DNA of 35,745 nucleotides from a virus. Lineage: Duplodnaviria; Heunggongvirae; Uroviricota; Caudoviricetes. The notes under the pieces are model-generated. The model was given only the letters and a program-made list of their open reading frames with translations. It made no database searches and had not been told where the DNA came from. This document shows, piece by piece, positions 21,429 through 28,052 of the stretch (position 1 is the first letter of the stretch; every line of letters begins with the position of its first letter). The stretch is taken from the IMG/VR virus record IMGVR_UViG_2548876857_000008; one strand, 5' to 3'. Made by a program: the position numbers and the translations under genes.

Positions 21429-21655
21429 AATTTATTTACCGCGGCCCGGCCAGCGGCGTGACGTTAGCCGATGGCGCAGAAGTGCTGCTCTGGCCAGAGC
21501 ATGAGGTGGAACTGCCGGAAGATCTGGACTATGTGCAGACGCTGCTGGCGCTGAAGCATCTCACACCAGCGCCAGTTGAACCCGAAGTGGTGCCTGAACC
21601 TGAACCACAACCCCTGAAGGGTAAAAAAGAGAAGGAGACAACCAGTGGCAGCTAA
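21425..21655 (+). CDS. hypothetical small protein (Mu gp38 position)
   Basis: 76 aa with a Pro/Glu-rich C-terminus. Confidence 0.45.
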   Translation: MKFIYRGPASGVTLADGAEVLLWPEHEVELPEDLDYVQTLLALKHLTPAPVEPEVVPEPEPQPLKGKKEKETTSGS

Positions 21656-23060
21656 TTATTTACACGGCGTCGAGACTATCGAGATCGAACGCGGCCCGCG
21701 CCCGGTGCGTACCGTTAAGTCGGCGGTGATTGGTCTTGTAGGAACGGCTCCGGCTGGCCCGATTAACACATCGGTATTGTGCCTGTCAGAGAAAGACGCG
21801 GCGCAGTTCGGCTCGCAGGTTTCCGGGTTCAGTATCCCGCAGGCACTGGATGCGATTTATGACCACGGCGCGGGAACGGTGGTGGTAATTAACGTGGCCG
21901 ATCCGGCAAAGCACAGCGTAACGGCCTCTACCATCGCACGTCGGGTTGATGATAATCATCAGATCAGGCTGGACTATGGCGCGGTCAGTAATGTCGTTTT
22001 GAAGGTGTCGGGCGCGAGTTCAGATTTAAGCCCGGCAAATTATACCGTTGATGCCGGAACTGGCGTTGTTACATGCCCGACGGTTAACGCAGGCGACACG
22101 CTGTTTGCCACATATCGTTATATCGATCCGACAAAAATCACCGCTGCCGATATCATCGGCGCGATCAATGCCGCAGGCCAGCGTATCGGGATGAAGCTGC
22201 TGGAGGATACCTATAGTCTCTATGGTTTTAAACCGAAAATCCTGATCGCCCCGGTGTTCTGTACGCAAAAATCGGTCAGTACCGAGCTGATTGCCCTGGC
22301 GGAAAAGCTGGACGCTATCACCTATATCGATGCGCCAGTTGGCACGACCTTCAGCCAGGTGCTGGCAGGCCGTGGCGCATCCGGGACTATCAACTTCAAT
22401 ACCAGTTCCGAACGCGCCCGTCTGTGCTACCCGCACGTTAAGGTGTATGACTCTGTCACCGACAGCGAACGGCTGGAGCCGCTTTCCTCCCGCGCCGCTG
22501 GCCTGCGTGCCAAAGTGGATCTGGATAACGGTTTCTGGTGGAGCAACTCCAACCAGGAGATCCTCGGCATCACTGGTGTGGAACGTTCGCTGTCGGCGAT
22601 GATTGATGACCCGCAAAGCGAGGTGAATCAACTGAACGAAAACGGCATCACCACCGTTTTCAACAGCTACGGCACCGGGATGCGACTGTGGGGCAACCGT
22701 ACCGCCGCCTGGCCGACCGTTACCCATATGCGCAACTTTGAAAATGTGCGGCGCACCGGGGATGTGATTAACGAGTCGATCCGTTACTTCAGTCAGCAGT
22801 ATCTGGATATGCCGATTAACCAGGCGCTGATTGACGCGCTAACCGAATCGGTGAATGCCTATGGCCGCAAGCTGATTGGCGACGGCGCATTGCTGGGCTT
22901 CGAGTGCTGGTATGACCCGGCGCGTAATGAGCAGACCGAGCTGGCCGCTGGCCATCTGCTGCTCAGTTACAAATATACGCCGCCTCCGCCGCTGGAACGG
23001 CTGACGTTTGAGACGGAAATCACTTCGGAATATCTGGTTAATCTGGAAGGTAAACGCTGA
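21645..23060 (+). CDS. contractile tail sheath protein
   Basis: 471 aa; GTG start 8 nt after AAGGAG. Size and position before the tube gene match a myovirus sheath. Confidence 0.75.
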   Translation: MAANYLHGVETIEIERGPRPVRTVKSAVIGLVGTAPAGPINTSVLCLSEKDAAQFGSQVSGFSIPQALDAIYDHGAGTVVVINVADPAKHSVTASTIARRVDDNHQIRLDYGAVSNVVLKVSGASSDLSPANYTVDAGTGVVTCPTVNAGDTLFATYRYIDPTKITAADIIGAINAAGQRIGMKLLEDTYSLYGFKPKILIAPVFCTQKSVSTELIALAEKLDAITYIDAPVGTTFSQVLAGRGASGTINFNTSSERARLCYPHVKVYDSVTDSERLEPLSSRAAGLRAKVDLDNGFWWSNSNQEILGITGVERSLSAMIDDPQSEVNQLNENGITTVFNSYGTGMRLWGNRTAAWPTVTHMRNFENVRRTGDVINESIRYFSQQYLDMPINQALIDALTESVNAYGRKLIGDGALLGFECWYDPARNEQTELAAGHLLLSYKYTPPPPLERLTFETEITSEYLVNLEGKR

Positions 23061-23584
23061 TGGGCGGAAAAATTGAAGTTAACCGTATTACCAACGCCAA
23101 TATCTATATCAATGGTAATAACCTGCTGGGCCGCGCGGAGGAGATTAAGCTGCCGGATATCAGCATGATTATGCAGGAGCATAAGGCGCTGGGGATGGTC
23201 GGCAAGATTGAGTTGCCCGCTGGGTTCGACAAACTGGAGGGCGAAATCAAGTGGAACAGCTTCTATCGCGAAGTGATGCGCCATGCGGCTAACCCGTATA
23301 AGTCGCTGGCGTTGCAGTGCCGTTCGTCTATCGACCGCTATAACTCAACGGGGCGTATCGATGAAATCCCGCTGGTGACGCACCTGACGGTAATGTTCAA
23401 GAAGAATCCGCTGGGGACGTTTAAGCAACATGAGAACCCGGATTTTTCCAGTGCCTTTAGCTGCACCTATATCAAGCAGGTGGTGGACGGCGAGACGCTG
23501 CTGGAACTGGATTATCTGGCGAATATCTTCAAAGTGAATGGCGTGGATCAGTTGAGCACCTATCGCGCCAATATCGGCGGTTAA
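23060..23584 (+). CDS. tail tube protein
   Basis: 174 aa immediately after the sheath gene (TGATG overlap). Confidence 0.7.
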   Translation: MGGKIEVNRITNANIYINGNNLLGRAEEIKLPDISMIMQEHKALGMVGKIELPAGFDKLEGEIKWNSFYREVMRHAANPYKSLALQCRSSIDRYNSTGRIDEIPLVTHLTVMFKKNPLGTFKQHENPDFSSAFSCTYIKQVVDGETLLELDYLANIFKVNGVDQLSTYRANIGG

Positions 23585-23589
23585 CCACT

Positions 23590-23660
23590 CATTAAAGCTG
23601 TTTAATACTGTTTGTTTCATCCCTCCTCAATACTGTCCTCAGTTCAACACTGAGGACAGT
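23590..23660 (+). promoter_or_regulatory. inter-operon element: CATTAAAGCTGTTTAATACTG motif plus perfect 12-bp hairpin before the tail chaperone gene
   Basis: Motif at 23590-23610. Hairpin ACTGTCCTCAGT-TCAAC-ACTGAGGACAGT at 23632-23660 holds the GAGGA site in its 3' arm, 4 nt before the ATG at 23665. No U-tract follows. Confidence 0.5.
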
Positions 23661-23664
23661 CACC

Positions 23665-23967
23665 ATGACAGACACATTCAAACTGCAATACCCCTTCACC
23701 GCACCCTCCGGGCAGCGTATCGACGAACTGCAACTGACTCGCCTGAAGGTCAAAGATATGCGTGCGGCTCGACGTATCAGCGATAAACCTGAAGACTGGG
23801 ACGAACCGCTACTGGCGGCGATGACCGGACTGGTGCCGGAAGATTTGGCCGAAATGGATCTTGCTGACTATCAGGCGTTGCAGAAACGATTTCAGAACAT
23901 GCTTGGGCTGGGCGGCGAACCCGCAGCAACTGTGGCAGGCGATGGCGCTGCTGGCACGGTGGTTTAG
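23665..23967 (+). CDS. tail assembly chaperone (P2 gpE / lambda G-like)
   Basis: 100 aa between the tube and tape-measure genes. An overlapping +1-frame ORF extends to 24067. Confidence 0.6.
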   Translation: MTDTFKLQYPFTAPSGQRIDELQLTRLKVKDMRAARRISDKPEDWDEPLLAAMTGLVPEDLAEMDLADYQALQKRFQNMLGLGGEPAATVAGDGAAGTVV

Positions 23968-24041
23968 GTTTCAACCAGGGGAAATTGACAATCTGGCGGT
24001 CGGGGATTTTGAACGCTGGCTTGATGAGGCCAGCGCCCAGA

Positions 24042-24320
24042 TTAAGCGTGAGAACGGCGGCGGTTGAGTACCCATTCGGTGATGCTGCCGACAAGGGCGA
24101 ACAGGAAGGCCAGCAGGGAAATGGCCGGGCTAAATAACCAGCCTGCCAGTGCGGTCAGCAACAGTACACCAACGCTGCCCACACCAATCATCAAAGTTGC
24201 CGCCAGCCCATCATGGCAGTTATGCAGGGTATAGCTGACCACATGAAACAGCGCCCAACCATCCACCGCCACAATCGCGGCGATCAATAGTCCTTTAAAC
24301 AGGGTTAATGCGTTGTTCAT
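24042..24320 (-). CDS. small integral membrane protein encoded antisense within the tail module (moron candidate)
   Basis: 92 aa with three predicted TM helices and a basic C-terminus (NRRRSHA). AAGAGG sits 4-5 nt before the ATG at 24320. It is the only minus-strand gene in the late region. Confidence 0.5.
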   Translation of the reverse strand: MNNALTLFKGLLIAAIVAVDGWALFHVVSYTLHNCHDGLAATLMIGVGSVGVLLLTALAGWLFSPAISLLAFLFALVGSITEWVLNRRRSHA

Positions 24321-24360: not shown

Positions 24361-27135
24361 GTGGCTGCTGAATTTTCAATCGGTGTTCTTATTAGTGGCG
24401 CAGTCACTGGCGCATTTCGTTCTGCTATTGGAGGAACCCAGCGAGCGTTAAACGATCTCCAATCCACCACGCAGCGATTGCAAAACCGTCAGGCCGCGCT
24501 GACGCAGGCGATGACACGTTACGGGCAGGCAGGTATTAGCAGTACATCCCGGCTCAACAACGAATTACAGCAAGTCAGTCGCACAATGGCGCGGCTGGAA
24601 AGCCAGCAAAATAAATTATCCAGCGCAACGGCGCGTAGCCAGGCGATGCGTTCGCAGCGGATGGATCTTTACGCCCAGGGTGCAGAGACCTACGCGCTGG
24701 CCAGAACGATGTCGGCCCCTCTGGTGTCGTCAGTGAAAACCTATGCGGGGTTTGAATCAGGGCTGCGGGATATTGCCGTGACCGGGGATCTGGACAGTAA
24801 ACAGGAAGCGGCGATCGATAACGCCATCCGTCAGGCAGCGGGTAAAGTCAACCAGTTGCAGGAAACGCTACTCGGTGGCGTGAATCAACTGGTAGCCGAT
24901 GGTATGAACCCGGAGAAAGCGGCGGGAATGGTGGATTTGCTTGGTAAAACCGCCACGGCCACCAAGGCTGATATGACCGATCTGGCAAAAATGACTTTCG
25001 CTTTTAGCGATGCCTTGAAGATTAGCGATGGAAAGGAGATGCAGGAAGCCTTTGCAATGGCAGCGGTCGGAGCAAAGACCGGCTCCTTTGAACTGAAAGA
25101 TATGGCAAAGGCATTGCCTACCCTGACAAAAAGCTTTGCGGCTAAAGGTATTACGGGTAAGGAAGCGATTAAAGAAATTGTCGCCTCTCTCGAAGCTGCA
25201 AAAGGCTCTGGTTCGGCAGAAGAAGCCGTGACCAATATGACCAACTGGATGGGCGCAATGACGCGCGGCGATACCGTCAAGAAATATGAAAAGGCGGGCG
25301 TAAATTATGAAGCGTCGATGAAAGATTATGTCGCCAAAGGTTATTCGCAATATGAAGCCTCGCTGATGATTGCTGACCGCTTTATTAAAGGTAAAGGCGA
25401 TGCCTTTATAAAACAGTGGCAGGAAGCGGGGGCACGTGGCGACGGTGAGTCGCAACAGAAGTTGATGGAGTCGTTTGGTCTGTCGGAGGTTTTTACCGAT
25501 ATTCAAACCGTCAATCATCTGCTTTCCATGCGTCAGAACTGGGATCAATATCAGTCGAATAAAGCCAAAATGGGTGACCCGGCATCACAGAATGTGCTGG
25601 ATACTGATTTTAATAAGCAAAACGATACCCTGGAAGCCCGCTGGCGAAGCTCGCAGGTAGCGATGAATGAGATGGCAATCAGTATCGGTAGTTCTCTACG
25701 CCCGGCACTGGTCGAATTATCGGAAAGTCTGCTGCCAGTAATGAGTTCTTTTGCAAAATGGCTTTCAGCTAACCCGGAGATGGTGGCGAATATAGCCAAA
25801 CTACTGGCCGGATTTATTGCATTCAAAGCGGCGACGGTCGGTAGCAAGCTGGCTCTGAATATGATGTTGTCGCCGTTTGTGGATTGTATTAAAGCGGTAA
25901 CGTTGCTTAACACGAAATGGCTGCTTCTGAAAACAGCCTTTTCGTCTGGCGGCAAACTGGCAGGCATCACTAAGTTGTTCGGCTCGCTAGCGCGTGGTGC
26001 CTTGTCATTAGGCAAAATCCTTGCCGGTGGATTAATGCGTGGCGTGATGATGGCCGCCCGTGCCGTAATGTTTCTGGGCCGTGCGCTGCTGATGAATCCC
26101 ATCGGGTTGATTATCACTGGCATCGCGGCAGCCGCGTATCTGATTTATCGCTACTGGGGGCCCATTTCCGGCTTCTTTAAACGGCTGTGGGCGCAGGTCA
26201 CGGTAGCGTTTCGCGGGGCGTGGAGCGGCATCAAAGGTATCTGGAGTGGCGTGTCGGGCTGGTTCTCTGGTATCTGGGCGCAAATCAAAACCGCATTCAG
26301 CGGTGGGATTGGCGGCGTGGCAAAGCTGATTACCAACTGGTCGCCGCTGGGCCTGTTCTATAAAGCTTTTGCCGGAGTGATGAAATACTTCGGTATCGAT
26401 ATGCCGAAGAACTTTACCGATTTTGGCGGTAATCTGATTAACGGTCTGATGAACGGTATCGGCAATGCGCTGACTGCTGCGAAAGAGACGGTCGTTAACT
26501 TTGGTAACTCGATTTCAGGCTGGTTTAAGGAGACGCTGGGCATTCACTCCCCGAGCCAGGTGTTTGCCGGGTTCGGCGACAATATCGCGCAAGGGGCCGC
26601 TATCGGTATCAACCGCACCGCCCCGGATGCGATTTCCGCCAGCCAACAGATGGCGGCGGCGTTAATTCCCCCGTTGCTGGATATCCGCGTTCCGGGTCTG
26701 GATGTTGCCGCAATACCACAGCGACCACCTGTTGCGGGTGGCATCGCGCCTCAACTCAACCCACTGCTGCCGAAAGTCGCACCGCCCACCATTGTGCCAG
26801 CCCCCACTGCGGCGGGTATGGCGCTGGCTGGGGCGGCGGGCGCGGTGTTATCTCGCCGCAAACCGCTGTCGCCAGTGCCACCAAAACCCGCCGTACCTGC
26901 CGTTCCTGAACTGCCGAAAAGTACCGCACCAGCCGCCAAAGGCCGCAATGCCAGTGCGCGTGTGCCGGGGCAGTCATCCGGGGTGAATGTGACCTTTGCG
27001 CCGCAAATTACCATCAAAGGCGCGGCATCGACGACCGAGGGCGAAATCACCTCTGCGCTGAAACTGAGCCTGCACGAACTTGAAAAGATGATGGAGCGGA
27101 TTATGGCGCGTCGTGAACGCCGGGAGTATGCATAA
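24361..27135 (+). CDS. tail tape measure protein
   Basis: 924 aa, largely helical, with central hydrophobic Gly/Ala segments and a Pro/Ala-rich C-terminal region. GTG start after GGGAG. Follows the chaperone gene. Confidence 0.85.
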   Translation: MAAEFSIGVLISGAVTGAFRSAIGGTQRALNDLQSTTQRLQNRQAALTQAMTRYGQAGISSTSRLNNELQQVSRTMARLESQQNKLSSATARSQAMRSQRMDLYAQGAETYALARTMSAPLVSSVKTYAGFESGLRDIAVTGDLDSKQEAAIDNAIRQAAGKVNQLQETLLGGVNQLVADGMNPEKAAGMVDLLGKTATATKADMTDLAKMTFAFSDALKISDGKEMQEAFAMAAVGAKTGSFELKDMAKALPTLTKSFAAKGITGKEAIKEIVASLEAAKGSGSAEEAVTNMTNWMGAMTRGDTVKKYEKAGVNYEASMKDYVAKGYSQYEASLMIADRFIKGKGDAFIKQWQEAGARGDGESQQKLMESFGLSEVFTDIQTVNHLLSMRQNWDQYQSNKAKMGDPASQNVLDTDFNKQNDTLEARWRSSQVAMNEMAISIGSSLRPALVELSESLLPVMSSFAKWLSANPEMVANIAKLLAGFIAFKAATVGSKLALNMMLSPFVDCIKAVTLLNTKWLLLKTAFSSGGKLAGITKLFGSLARGALSLGKILAGGLMRGVMMAARAVMFLGRALLMNPIGLIITGIAAAAYLIYRYWGPISGFFKRLWAQVTVAFRGAWSGIKGIWSGVSGWFSGIWAQIKTAFSGGIGGVAKLITNWSPLGLFYKAFAGVMKYFGIDMPKNFTDFGGNLINGLMNGIGNALTAAKETVVNFGNSISGWFKETLGIHSPSQVFAGFGDNIAQGAAIGINRTAPDAISASQQMAAALIPPLLDIRVPGLDVAAIPQRPPVAGGIAPQLNPLLPKVAPPTIVPAPTAAGMALAGAAGAVLSRRKPLSPVPPKPAVPAVPELPKSTAPAAKGRNASARVPGQSSGVNVTFAPQITIKGAASTTEGEITSALKLSLHELEKMMERIMARRERREYA

Positions 27136-28052
27136 TGTTTGCCGTACTGGGTGATATTGAGTTTGAGGTGGTGACCTACTGGGACGGCTTTGATGCGTCG
27201 TTTGGTATGGATTATGCCGAACATGCCCGCATTGAAGGCAAACCGGGGTTGCAGTTTATCGGCGAAAAGCTGGATGAAGTGAGTATCAGCCTAGTGTTCC
27301 ACGATCACTATTGCCAGCCGGATGTTGAACTGGCGCGACTGCGTGACGCAATGGTGGCGCATCAGGCGCTGGCGCTGGTATTTGGCAACGGCGACTATCG
27401 CGGCTGGTTTGTGGTAACCGATATTCGGGCAACCAGCCAGCAGACCGATGGCCTCGGTAATGTGCAGGCGTTAAGTGCAGAGCTGTCGCTGAAGGAGTAC
27501 ATCGGCGATCCGAAAAATCCCCTGACGCCACCGGCTGTGTCCGGGGACGATCCGAATATCGATTCGTGGTCTGACGATGCCGACGACAGTTTTTCCGGCA
27601 GCGATATGTTCGACGGCCTAAGCGATATTACCGACGGGCTGGATGCGGCATCGGACGCGCTGGATGCCGCAGAGCAGGCGTTCGATGAGGCAGTGTCGTG
27701 GGCGGAAGATGTGGTGGAGCAAGTTGAAGATGCGATTGATGACGTACTTTCACCGCTGGAGGACGTTCTCAATGAGGTGTTATCACCACTCGATGAGGTG
27801 ATGCAGGCGCTGGAGGGTATCATGGGCGGCGGCGTACTGACCGATGCTCTCGGCGAGGTCGGGCAAGTCGCCTCGCAGATTTACGATGAAATCAGCAGTA
27901 CGTTGACCGGGCTTGACGGTATCACCCCCGACAACTTTGCCGATCTGTTCTCGCAGGCACTGGACGTGGTGCGCAACGGTCAGTCATTGATGGAAGCGTG
28001 TTCTCCCGCCGTTAGCAGGCTGGCGGCGGCAATCATTACCAGGAGCGTGTGA
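27135..28052 (+). CDS. tail protein (Mu N / DNA circulation protein-like)
   Basis: 305 aa directly after the tape measure. Acidic C-terminal half with short repeats (VLSPLEDVLNEVLSPLDEV). Confidence 0.5.
   Translation: MFAVLGDIEFEVVTYWDGFDASFGMDYAEHARIEGKPGLQFIGEKLDEVSISLVFHDHYCQPDVELARLRDAMVAHQALALVFGNGDYRGWFVVTDIRATSQQTDGLGNVQALSAELSLKEYIGDPKNPLTPPAVSGDDPNIDSWSDDADDSFSGSDMFDGLSDITDGLDAASDALDAAEQAFDEAVSWAEDVVEQVEDAIDDVLSPLEDVLNEVLSPLDEVMQALEGIMGGGVLTDALGEVGQVASQIYDEISSTLTGLDGITPDNFADLFSQALDVVRNGQSLMEACSPAVSRLAAAIITRSV

Follow-up and report, generated by a model that had tools for sequence, protein, structure and literature searches.

A conserved CGA_UUU_C site and a predicted +1 frameshift in the tail chaperone gene of a BcepMu-like prophage

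The tail chaperone locus

The stretch of DNA analyzed here (the window; 35,745 nucleotides, virus record IMGVR_UViG_2548876857_000008) contains the tail module of a temperate myophage that is BcepMu-like and has tail genes of the P2 type; its closest annotated phage relatives are Bcepmuvirus members or enteric prophages. Our subject is its gpE-like tail assembly chaperone gene, together with an open reading frame (ORF) that overlaps the 3′ end of that gene in the +1 frame. Comparison with relatives makes it very likely that the prophage makes a longer form of the chaperone by +1 ribosomal frameshifting, and the shift quite probably takes place somewhere in a 7–10 nucleotide (nt) site, CGA_UUU_C, which lies about 75 bases 5′ of a stop codon that had earlier been proposed as shifty. 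The features concerned, all on the + strand, are as follows (aa, amino acids).

23665..23967: tail assembly chaperone ORF, gpE-like, 100 aa, frame 0 (PF10109, Phage_TAC_7)
23887..23893: proposed +1 recoding site CGA_UUU_C (Arg75 CGA 23887–23889, Phe76 TTT 23890–23892, C 23893)
23894..24067: predicted +1 coding segment of the fusion, 57 aa, RTCLGWAANPQQLWQAMALLARWFRFQPGEIDNLAVGDFERWLDEASAQIKRENGGG, stop TGA 24065–24067
23894..23967: dual-coding overlap, zero-frame tail QNMLGLGGEPAATVAGDGAAGTVV over the +1-frame N-terminal extension
23939..24040: GpE′-like domain of the extension (AMALLARWFRFQPGEIDNLAVGDFERWLDEASAQ), 34 residues
23962..23968: GTT TAG G, the earlier proposed shifty stop, a zero-frame terminator only (present in 11 of 81 enteric sequences)

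The original prediction described this arrangement accurately in several respects: the chaperone ORF ends in ...ACG GTG GTT TAG G with the TAG at 23965–23967, the overlapping +1-frame ORF occupies 23861–24067 (68 aa counted from its first TTG), and the gene does encode a tail chaperone. Residues 4–80 of its product match PF10109 (E = 8.6e-21, 74 bits against a cut-off of 25), with Phe76 of the proposed site at the C-terminal edge of that domain, and the gene lies between the tube (PF04985) and tape-measure (PF10145) genes, as in λ G/GT-type pairs. No NCBIfam match was found for the chaperone ORF, the +1 ORF, or their fusion.

Relatives of the chaperone gene were pooled from viral contigs, species genomes, complete Escherichia coli genomes, and assemblies encoding more distant proteins. 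They are present in 820 of 5426 complete E. coli genomes, and their hosts also include Salmonella, Klebsiella, Enterobacter, Pectobacterium, and Burkholderia. The dereplicated set holds 81 distinct enteric and 14 Burkholderia-clade (BcepMu-like) sequences, about 95 in all, the most distant of which have 41–47% protein identity to the window chaperone. The site survey covered 83 unique sequences (81 enteric and two Burkholderia) and a separate Burkholderia-clade set of 14 unique sequences; the codon-usage control and the frame-identity figures given below come from 24 enteric representatives (<93% nucleotide identity), and the +1-frame peptide alignment from 25 representatives.

Conservation of the +1 frame

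The +1 frame of the window is open from about 23825 to the TGA at 24065–24067. Open alternative frames of similar length are common in this window of 55% G+C, so the +1 ORF taken alone is at chance level, and it is its conservation that marks it as real. All relatives examined have an open +1 frame with a conserved peptide, and the near-gapless alignment has, counting from Phe76, the motif F-x5-W-x6-L-W-Q-A-x-A-L-L-A-R-W-F-R-F-Q/P-P-x-E-I-D. The W at +6 is invariant among the 25 representatives, while the same bases read in frame 0 encode variable residues. The earlier claim of a second, longer isoform made by a +1 shift is thus very probable.

The alignments also show directly where the coding frame changes. 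Over the 50 codons upstream of the Phe, amino acid identity is 0.74 in frame 0 and 0.45 in the +1 frame; the relation is reversed downstream, with 0.86 in the +1 frame against 0.61 in frame 0 at codons +15 to +24, and 0.68 against 0.41 at codons +25 to +53. Variability by codon position gives the same picture: zero-frame position 3 is the most variable in 10 of 10 five-codon windows upstream of the Phe, and starting with codon +10 the most variable is zero-frame position 1, equivalent to position 3 of the +1 frame. Selection therefore changes frame within 10 codons after the TTT. Over the overlap the zero-frame tail (GGEPAATVAGDGAAGTVV) is of low complexity and varies in length and sequence among relatives. 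The −1 frame does not carry the conserved peptide, and no T_TTT_TTG-type heptamer is present in the overlap.

The extension appears homologous to P2 gpE′, as judged by profile comparison. An hhalign comparison of the +1-peptide alignment, AMALLARWFRFQPGEIDNLAVGDFERWLDEASAQ, with P2 E′, LMADVAVIFHWPPSELYPMSLTELITWREKALRR, gives a probability of 80% (E = 1.4e-5) over 34 residues, and PF06528 (Phage_P2_GpE) is matched by nine of 13 family members with a best E of 1e-4; the window fusion itself reaches E = 0.029 and 14.3 bits, under the cut-off of 23. With the PF10109 match above, sequence comparison supports the homology of both domains. The fusion, join(23665..23892, 23894..24067), is predicted to be a gpE+E′-like protein of 133 aa.

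Could the +1 ORF instead be a separate small gene with its own start (the ATG of QAMALL at 23942), or one expressed by termination-reinitiation? The window does have that ATG, and PGAP annotates a coding sequence of 41–45 aa, "GpE family phage tail protein", in E. coli relatives. The position of the ATG, however, is occupied in other clades by Gln, Thr, Ser, Ala, or Glu codons, no column of the +1-frame alignment holds a conserved start codon, and no convincing Shine-Dalgarno (SD) element was found. The +1 residues 5′ of the ATG are conserved as well (as seen in the W at +6 and, from about +10, in which codon position varies most), zero-frame stop positions that span 17 codons argue against coupling, and the domain of the P2 homolog is annotated solely as part of a fusion. 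We regard a separate gene as very unlikely.

The CGA_UUU_C site

Two kinds of natural variants delimit the place of the shift. In one relative (L031) the +1 frame is closed by a stop three codons ahead of the TTT, and in two others (L034 and L069) the zero-frame stop comes 15 codons past it, so a site common to the whole family must lie within a bracket of 18 codons. Within this bracket UUU_C is the only element common to all lineages. The homologous codon is an in-frame TTT followed by C in 83 of 83 unique sequences of the survey and in 14 of 14 of the unique Burkholderia-clade sequences. Of the 81 enteric sequences, 80 have CGA TTT C and one (L020) has CGG TTT C, and all 14 Burkholderia-clade sequences read [T/G]C[C/T] TTT CG[C/T] despite their high G+C.

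This degree of codon conservation is local, and synonymous sites at CGA TTT are under selection, as far as can be read from codon choice. The Arg of the site is CGA in 23 of the 24 enteric representatives, against seven of 98 codons at five other Arg columns, and the Phe is TTT in 24 of 24, against 12 TTT and six TTC at another Phe column. Since the codon preceding CGA differs by lineage (AAA, GAG, ACT, ACC, or CAA), the constraint acts on CGA_UUU_C itself. CGA accounts for 7.8% of the Arg codons in the window, and a second in-frame CGATTTC is absent from its 29 long ORFs.

Several other signals were considered in the same region and set aside. A +1 shift on CCC_G at E85-P86 was rejected: many relatives have TCC at this codon, and synonymous variation is seen in the +1-frame Asn-Pro, both of which place the shift upstream of E85-P86. 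Transcriptional slippage was rejected because the runs are merely three bases long.

Lineage-specific shifts in the variable linker (codons +1 to +6), with UUU_C conserved for other reasons, would be a further way to reach the +1 frame. The linker varies in both frames, so that frame use cannot be read there from conservation, and some clades have C-runs further 3′ (GAATCCCCCCC in L017) at which database "fusions" join the frames. In the window linker, however, no codon can re-pair by +1 or, in the manner of a Mu-like −2 shift on CTT GGG CTG GGC, by −2 (the whole run CTT GGG CTG GGC GGC GAA CCC was examined); candidate runs are unconserved even between close relatives, and the CGA in 23 of 24 and TTT in 24 of 24 representatives would be left unexplained. 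Nor are the database fusions a guide to a junction. The in-frame "fusion" proteins (P0001, P0002, P0003, P0008, P0046, and others) trace to one or two contigs each, have their frames joined at C-runs or internal deletions, and are likely assembly or sequencing indels. Shifting in the linker is accordingly improbable, only a little less so than a separate gene.

The zero-frame stop codon

The original prediction placed the shift at the end of the chaperone ORF, with GUU in the P site and UAG in the A site (23962–23968), by analogy with E. coli prfB. The GTT TAG G is present, the +1 frame is open across it, and A-site stop codons are classical +1 stimulators (PMC10885494). Conservation of this context had been suggested as a check, together with conservation of the overlap; the overlap is conserved, but the context is not. 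GTT-TAG-R occurs in just 11 of the 81 unique enteric relatives, and in the other 70 the zero-frame stop is elsewhere; across the enteric set it lies 15, 25, 27, 30, or 32 codons past the anchor Phe. The 11 sequences are exactly those in which the +1-frame Phe-Arg of the WFRF motif is spelled TTT-AGG or TTT-AGA, which makes GTT-TAG-R a passive by-product of that spelling; where the same place holds CGC, CGG, CAC, or TTC-AGG, frame 0 reads on to a later stop.

The zero-frame stop of L034 and L069 precedes the LLARWF motif, so a shift at the window's stop position is impossible in these two and is not the family mechanism. In the window the stop falls within ...ARWF|RF..., after at least 15 conserved +1 residues. 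A fusion made at the stop would lose the conserved residues before it (W at +6, then LWQAMALLARWF), including the N-terminal third of the stretch homologous to P2 E′ (AMALLARWF), and both the +1 conservation and the switch in variable codon position begin at least 15 codons upstream. The likeness to prfB does not hold in other respects either: no anti-SD match of at least four bases at the prfB spacing, about 3 nt before the slippery codon, is present in GCTGGCACGGTG (before GTT) or in GCGTTGCAGAAA (before CGA TTT), and by base-pairing logic tRNA-Val on GUU re-pairs poorly with UUU. Slippage at the stop codon is therefore exceedingly improbable. The 33-aa peptide given for it (RFQPGEIDNL...ENGGG) is a correct translation of the +1 frame 3′ of the stop, but the extension predicted from CGA_UUU_C is the longer one of 57 aa.

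A proposed mechanism

Ribosomal shifting at CGA_UUU_C, the tRNA involved, the efficiency of the event, and the function of its product are what we infer from these comparisons, and the following scheme is offered in that sense. CGA is read by tRNA-Arg(ICG) through a weak I·A wobble pair. The 100-aa gpE-like protein would come from the majority of ribosomes, which stay in frame 0. The remainder would shift +1 at 23887–23893, with the peptidyl-tRNA-Phe (anticodon GAA) moving in the P site from UUU at 23890–23892 to UUC at 23891–23893, an exchange of a G·U wobble pair for a G:C pair. Translation would restart in the new frame at AGA (23894) and yield the 133-aa gpE+E′-like fusion ending at 24067. 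In enteric phages the preceding CGA would act as an enhancer, most simply through a loosened E-site tRNA. The analogy with λ gpG/gpGT and P2 gpE/gpE+E′ would assign binding of the tape-measure protein to the N-terminal domain that both products share, and recruitment of the tube protein to the extension; the low shift frequency would fix the ratio of the two products.

Parts of this scheme have precedents. In E. coli, a UUU that precedes a pyrimidine is documented as prone to +1 shifts (argI UUU_U), and weak E-site pairing increases +1 shifting in E. coli models (PMC2790909). When P-site codons are compared in the prfB context, UUU belongs to the most slippery (PMC10885494), and in yeast Ty3 CGA is among the few codons able to replace the stimulatory P-site GCG (PMC5009743). 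Slippage of the P-site tRNA-Phe is the specific model that we somewhat favor on the codon evidence, with less assurance than the placement of the shift within the site.

A number of observations weigh against this model or limit it. The sequences are phylogenetically related, so counts among them overstate independence. Other long ORFs of the window contain 21 in-frame copies of UUU_C, so UUU_C alone cannot be an efficient signal. With CGG in L020 and no Arg codon at the site in the Burkholderia clade, a role for CGA is not universal, and the constraint on CGA/TTT could in part be dual coding (+1-frame GAT TTC, Asp-Phe) if the shift came one codon earlier. After UUU the zero-frame A site receives CAG or CAA, neither of them a hungry codon, and in the window the new frame opens with AGA, a rare codon that should disfavor capture of that frame. 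As for stimulators, no SD-like element was found upstream of the site in the window sequence; folding of the 70 nt after the site in 20 relatives found no conserved RNA structure (z-scores mostly −1.7 to +1.8, without a common fold); and Rfam returned only two far-sub-threshold chance matches to miRNA/lncRNA families and no frameshift element. This absence of SD, structure, and Rfam element does fit a low-efficiency signal, as the λ ratio of G to GT, about 30:1 (PMC5009743), would predict.

The same 7–10 nt could also act through a different tRNA event, in which CGA is slow in the A site or distorting in the P site and the next aminoacyl-tRNA binds out of frame, either Asp-tRNA on GAU or Phe-tRNA on UUC; alternatively, tRNA-Lys might slip from AAA to AAC (+1) or AGA (−2). 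The products would be ...LQK-DFRTCLGW... or ...LQK-NDFRTCLGW..., in place of the ...LQKRF-RTCLGW... of the tRNA-Phe model. The Arg codon of the enteric site is always a poorly decoded one (CGA in 80 and CGG in one of 81) and never the dominant CGT or CGC, AAA precedes CGA in most enteric sequences, and GAU, the +1 A-site codon, is common, in contrast to the slow CGA. In Mu, moreover, CGA directly follows the G-run, and for Ty3, where CGA can replace the P-site GCG, out-of-frame binding in the A site has been proposed (PMC5009743). Yet the codon before CGA is non-slippery in at least four lineages (GAG, ACT, ACC, and CAA), the Burkholderia members without any CGA retain UUU_C, and the +1 stop three codons upstream in L031 leaves little room. 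We consider such an event rather unlikely, though far less so than the shifts in the linker or at the stop. Judged by sequence, CGA might act through weak pairing in the E site, distortion in the P site, or slow decoding in the A site, as it appears to do in Mu; the variants predict distinct junctions, namely KRF-RTC, K-DF-RTC, and K-NDF-RTC.

Comparison with known recoding systems

Frameshifting in tail chaperone genes is, as a kind of system, textbook knowledge: tailed phages shift −1, −2, or +1 at this gene (PMC5009743), and annotations of actinophages include 350 forward cases, without a general +1 motif having been recognized (PMC10885494). The closest parallel to the present case is P2 gpE/gpE+E′. 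The two share the PF10109 N-terminal domain, an extension that appears homologous (PF06528/E′-like; 58 aa in P2 and 57 aa in the window), and the gene order tube (FII), E, T tape measure, and U. The annotated −1 site of P2 (GGT TTT TTG) aligns 2–4 residues from Phe76 of the window; in each phage the shift point is within 2–4 aligned residues of where the PF10109 domain ends, and both sites contain a Phe codon. The systems differ in that the window extension is in the +1 and not the −1 frame, and that its signal is CGA_UUU_C with no X_XXY_YYZ heptamer.

Mu gp41 also belongs to the PF10109 family (described as "E, or 41 or 14"), has its extension in the +1/−2 frame, and includes CGA in its site, which we read as CGG_GGG_CGA. 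Its −2 frameshift is documented (PMC5009743; PMC2628397). In Mu the G-run gives perfect −2 re-pairing, whereas the window has no conserved run and most codons before CGA cannot re-pair −2; the Mu protein is also longer and its shift site far more C-terminal.

The −1 shift of λ takes place at G_GGA_AAG. Like the window gene, λ gpG/gpGT lies between the major tail and tape-measure genes, and a low-frequency fusion sets the ratio of its products (PMC5009743); unlike it, λ shifts in the −1 direction, and sequence homology between the two is undetectable. With E. coli prfB (CUU_UGA_C, preceded by an SD element) the window site shares the +1 direction and a P-site tRNA that would re-pair one base downstream, but its A site holds a sense codon and it has neither an SD-like stimulator nor an autoregulatory logic. 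The E. coli argI UUU_U site likewise has an in-frame UUU plus pyrimidine on which tRNA-Phe pairs in both frames (PMC2790909). Sites of this UUU-Y type are error sites, whereas that of the window is evolutionarily fixed and leads into a conserved domain. A systematic study of UUU-Y was reportedly made by Schwartz and Curran (1997). In yeast Ty3 (GCG_AGU_U), an inosine-wobble codon, CGA included, stimulates a +1 shift in the absence of a stop codon (PMC5009743), but the system is eukaryotic and the Ty3 P-site tRNA does not re-pair.

Public annotation and implications

A shift at CGA_UUU_C is unannotated in the public records examined. Those of PhiKM, KP12, phiE255, and vB_E274 give the first ORF only or two separate ORFs, and PGAP calls two separate genes in E. 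coli relatives. The BcepMu record has the +1 ORF as a "G-like" gp42 and a further "T-like" gp43 made by slippage; gp43 is probably mis-annotated, being antisense to the slot of the phiE255 membrane-protein gene. A search of the literature on Bcepmuvirus/phiE255 frameshifting, which did not include older tabulations of recoding sites and leaves priority uncertain, found nothing relevant, and the CGA_UUU_C motif appears to be undescribed in the records and papers reached. We also note that a gene call in Pectobacterium CP059959.1 (L032 1501–1909) runs over both ORFs; its 409 nt are 136 codons plus one base, arithmetic that fits either a +1 join or a "frameshifted" pseudogene.

It is possible, as a tentative reading of the sequence comparisons, that CGA_UUU_C is a compact, structure-independent bacterial +1 signal at sense codons that is fixed across BcepMu-like prophages. 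Bacterial +1 programmed sites without a stop codon or an SD stimulator are few. If the reading is true, an Arg codon decoded by inosine wobble stimulates slippage of tRNA-Phe, and the site would reveal whether the I·A decoding of CGA, which favors frameshifting in yeast, does so in bacteria too. The family of PF10109 plus GpE′ would in that case have arrived at three modes of recoding (−1 in P2, +1 here, and −2 in Mu), with the +1 site only a few codons from that of P2 and the Mu site more C-terminal, so that one chaperone family changed its recoding direction and kept its fusion architecture. A correct join would repair hundreds of prophage annotations.

Other features of the locus

The neighboring genes are the following.

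21645–23060: sheath gene (PF04984, PF17482)
23060–23584: tube gene (PF04985)
24042–24320, − strand: hydrophobic ORF, 92 aa
24361–27135: tape-measure gene (PF10145)
27135–28052: gpU-like gene (PF06995 in residues 6–123)

Just upstream of the chaperone gene is a perfect 12-bp hairpin at 23632–23660 (arms ACTGTCCTCAGT and ACTGAGGACAGT, loop TCAAC, about −21 kcal/mol), whose 3′ arm, four bases before the ATG at 23665, holds the chaperone SD (GAGGA, 23652–23656). Its stem is retained in L004 and L020 through compensatory changes at the top; shorter SD-sequestering stems are present in several other clades, BcepMu included, and one clade has instead a G+C-rich hairpin with a free SD. The pattern suggests translational control of chaperone synthesis.

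The antisense 92-aa ORF converges on the 3′ end of the extension with an overlap of 26 nt and has a σ70-like site nearby at 24379–24351. Relatives also carry small minus-strand ORFs at this place, one in phiE255, where it is annotated as a putative membrane protein, and others in vB_E274, E. coli A35, L031, and L034; similarity between the antisense membrane ORF of the window and phiE255 gp17 is undetectable. The gpU-like protein has an acidic tail of about 180 aa, rich in Asp, Ser, and Glu, after its PF06995 domain, with weak sub-cut-off Pfam matches to unrelated families.

The spacer between the tube and chaperone genes contains an A/T-rich motif, TTTAATA(C/T), at about 23601–23608, which recurs in E. 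coli, Obesumbacterium, and Pectobacterium relatives and has the form TTTTTTAAT in BcepMu; it might be a promoter, an activator-binding site, or a processing signal. Some relatives have an extra small gene between tube and chaperone that the window is without (L033 1065–1361, L034 1080–1355, L001 3520–3801, and L029 742–1023). It differs by host, encoding a Fer2 protein (PF00111) in Pectobacterium, a PF13876 protein in Salmonella, and a 93-aa hypothetical protein in E. coli and PhiKM.

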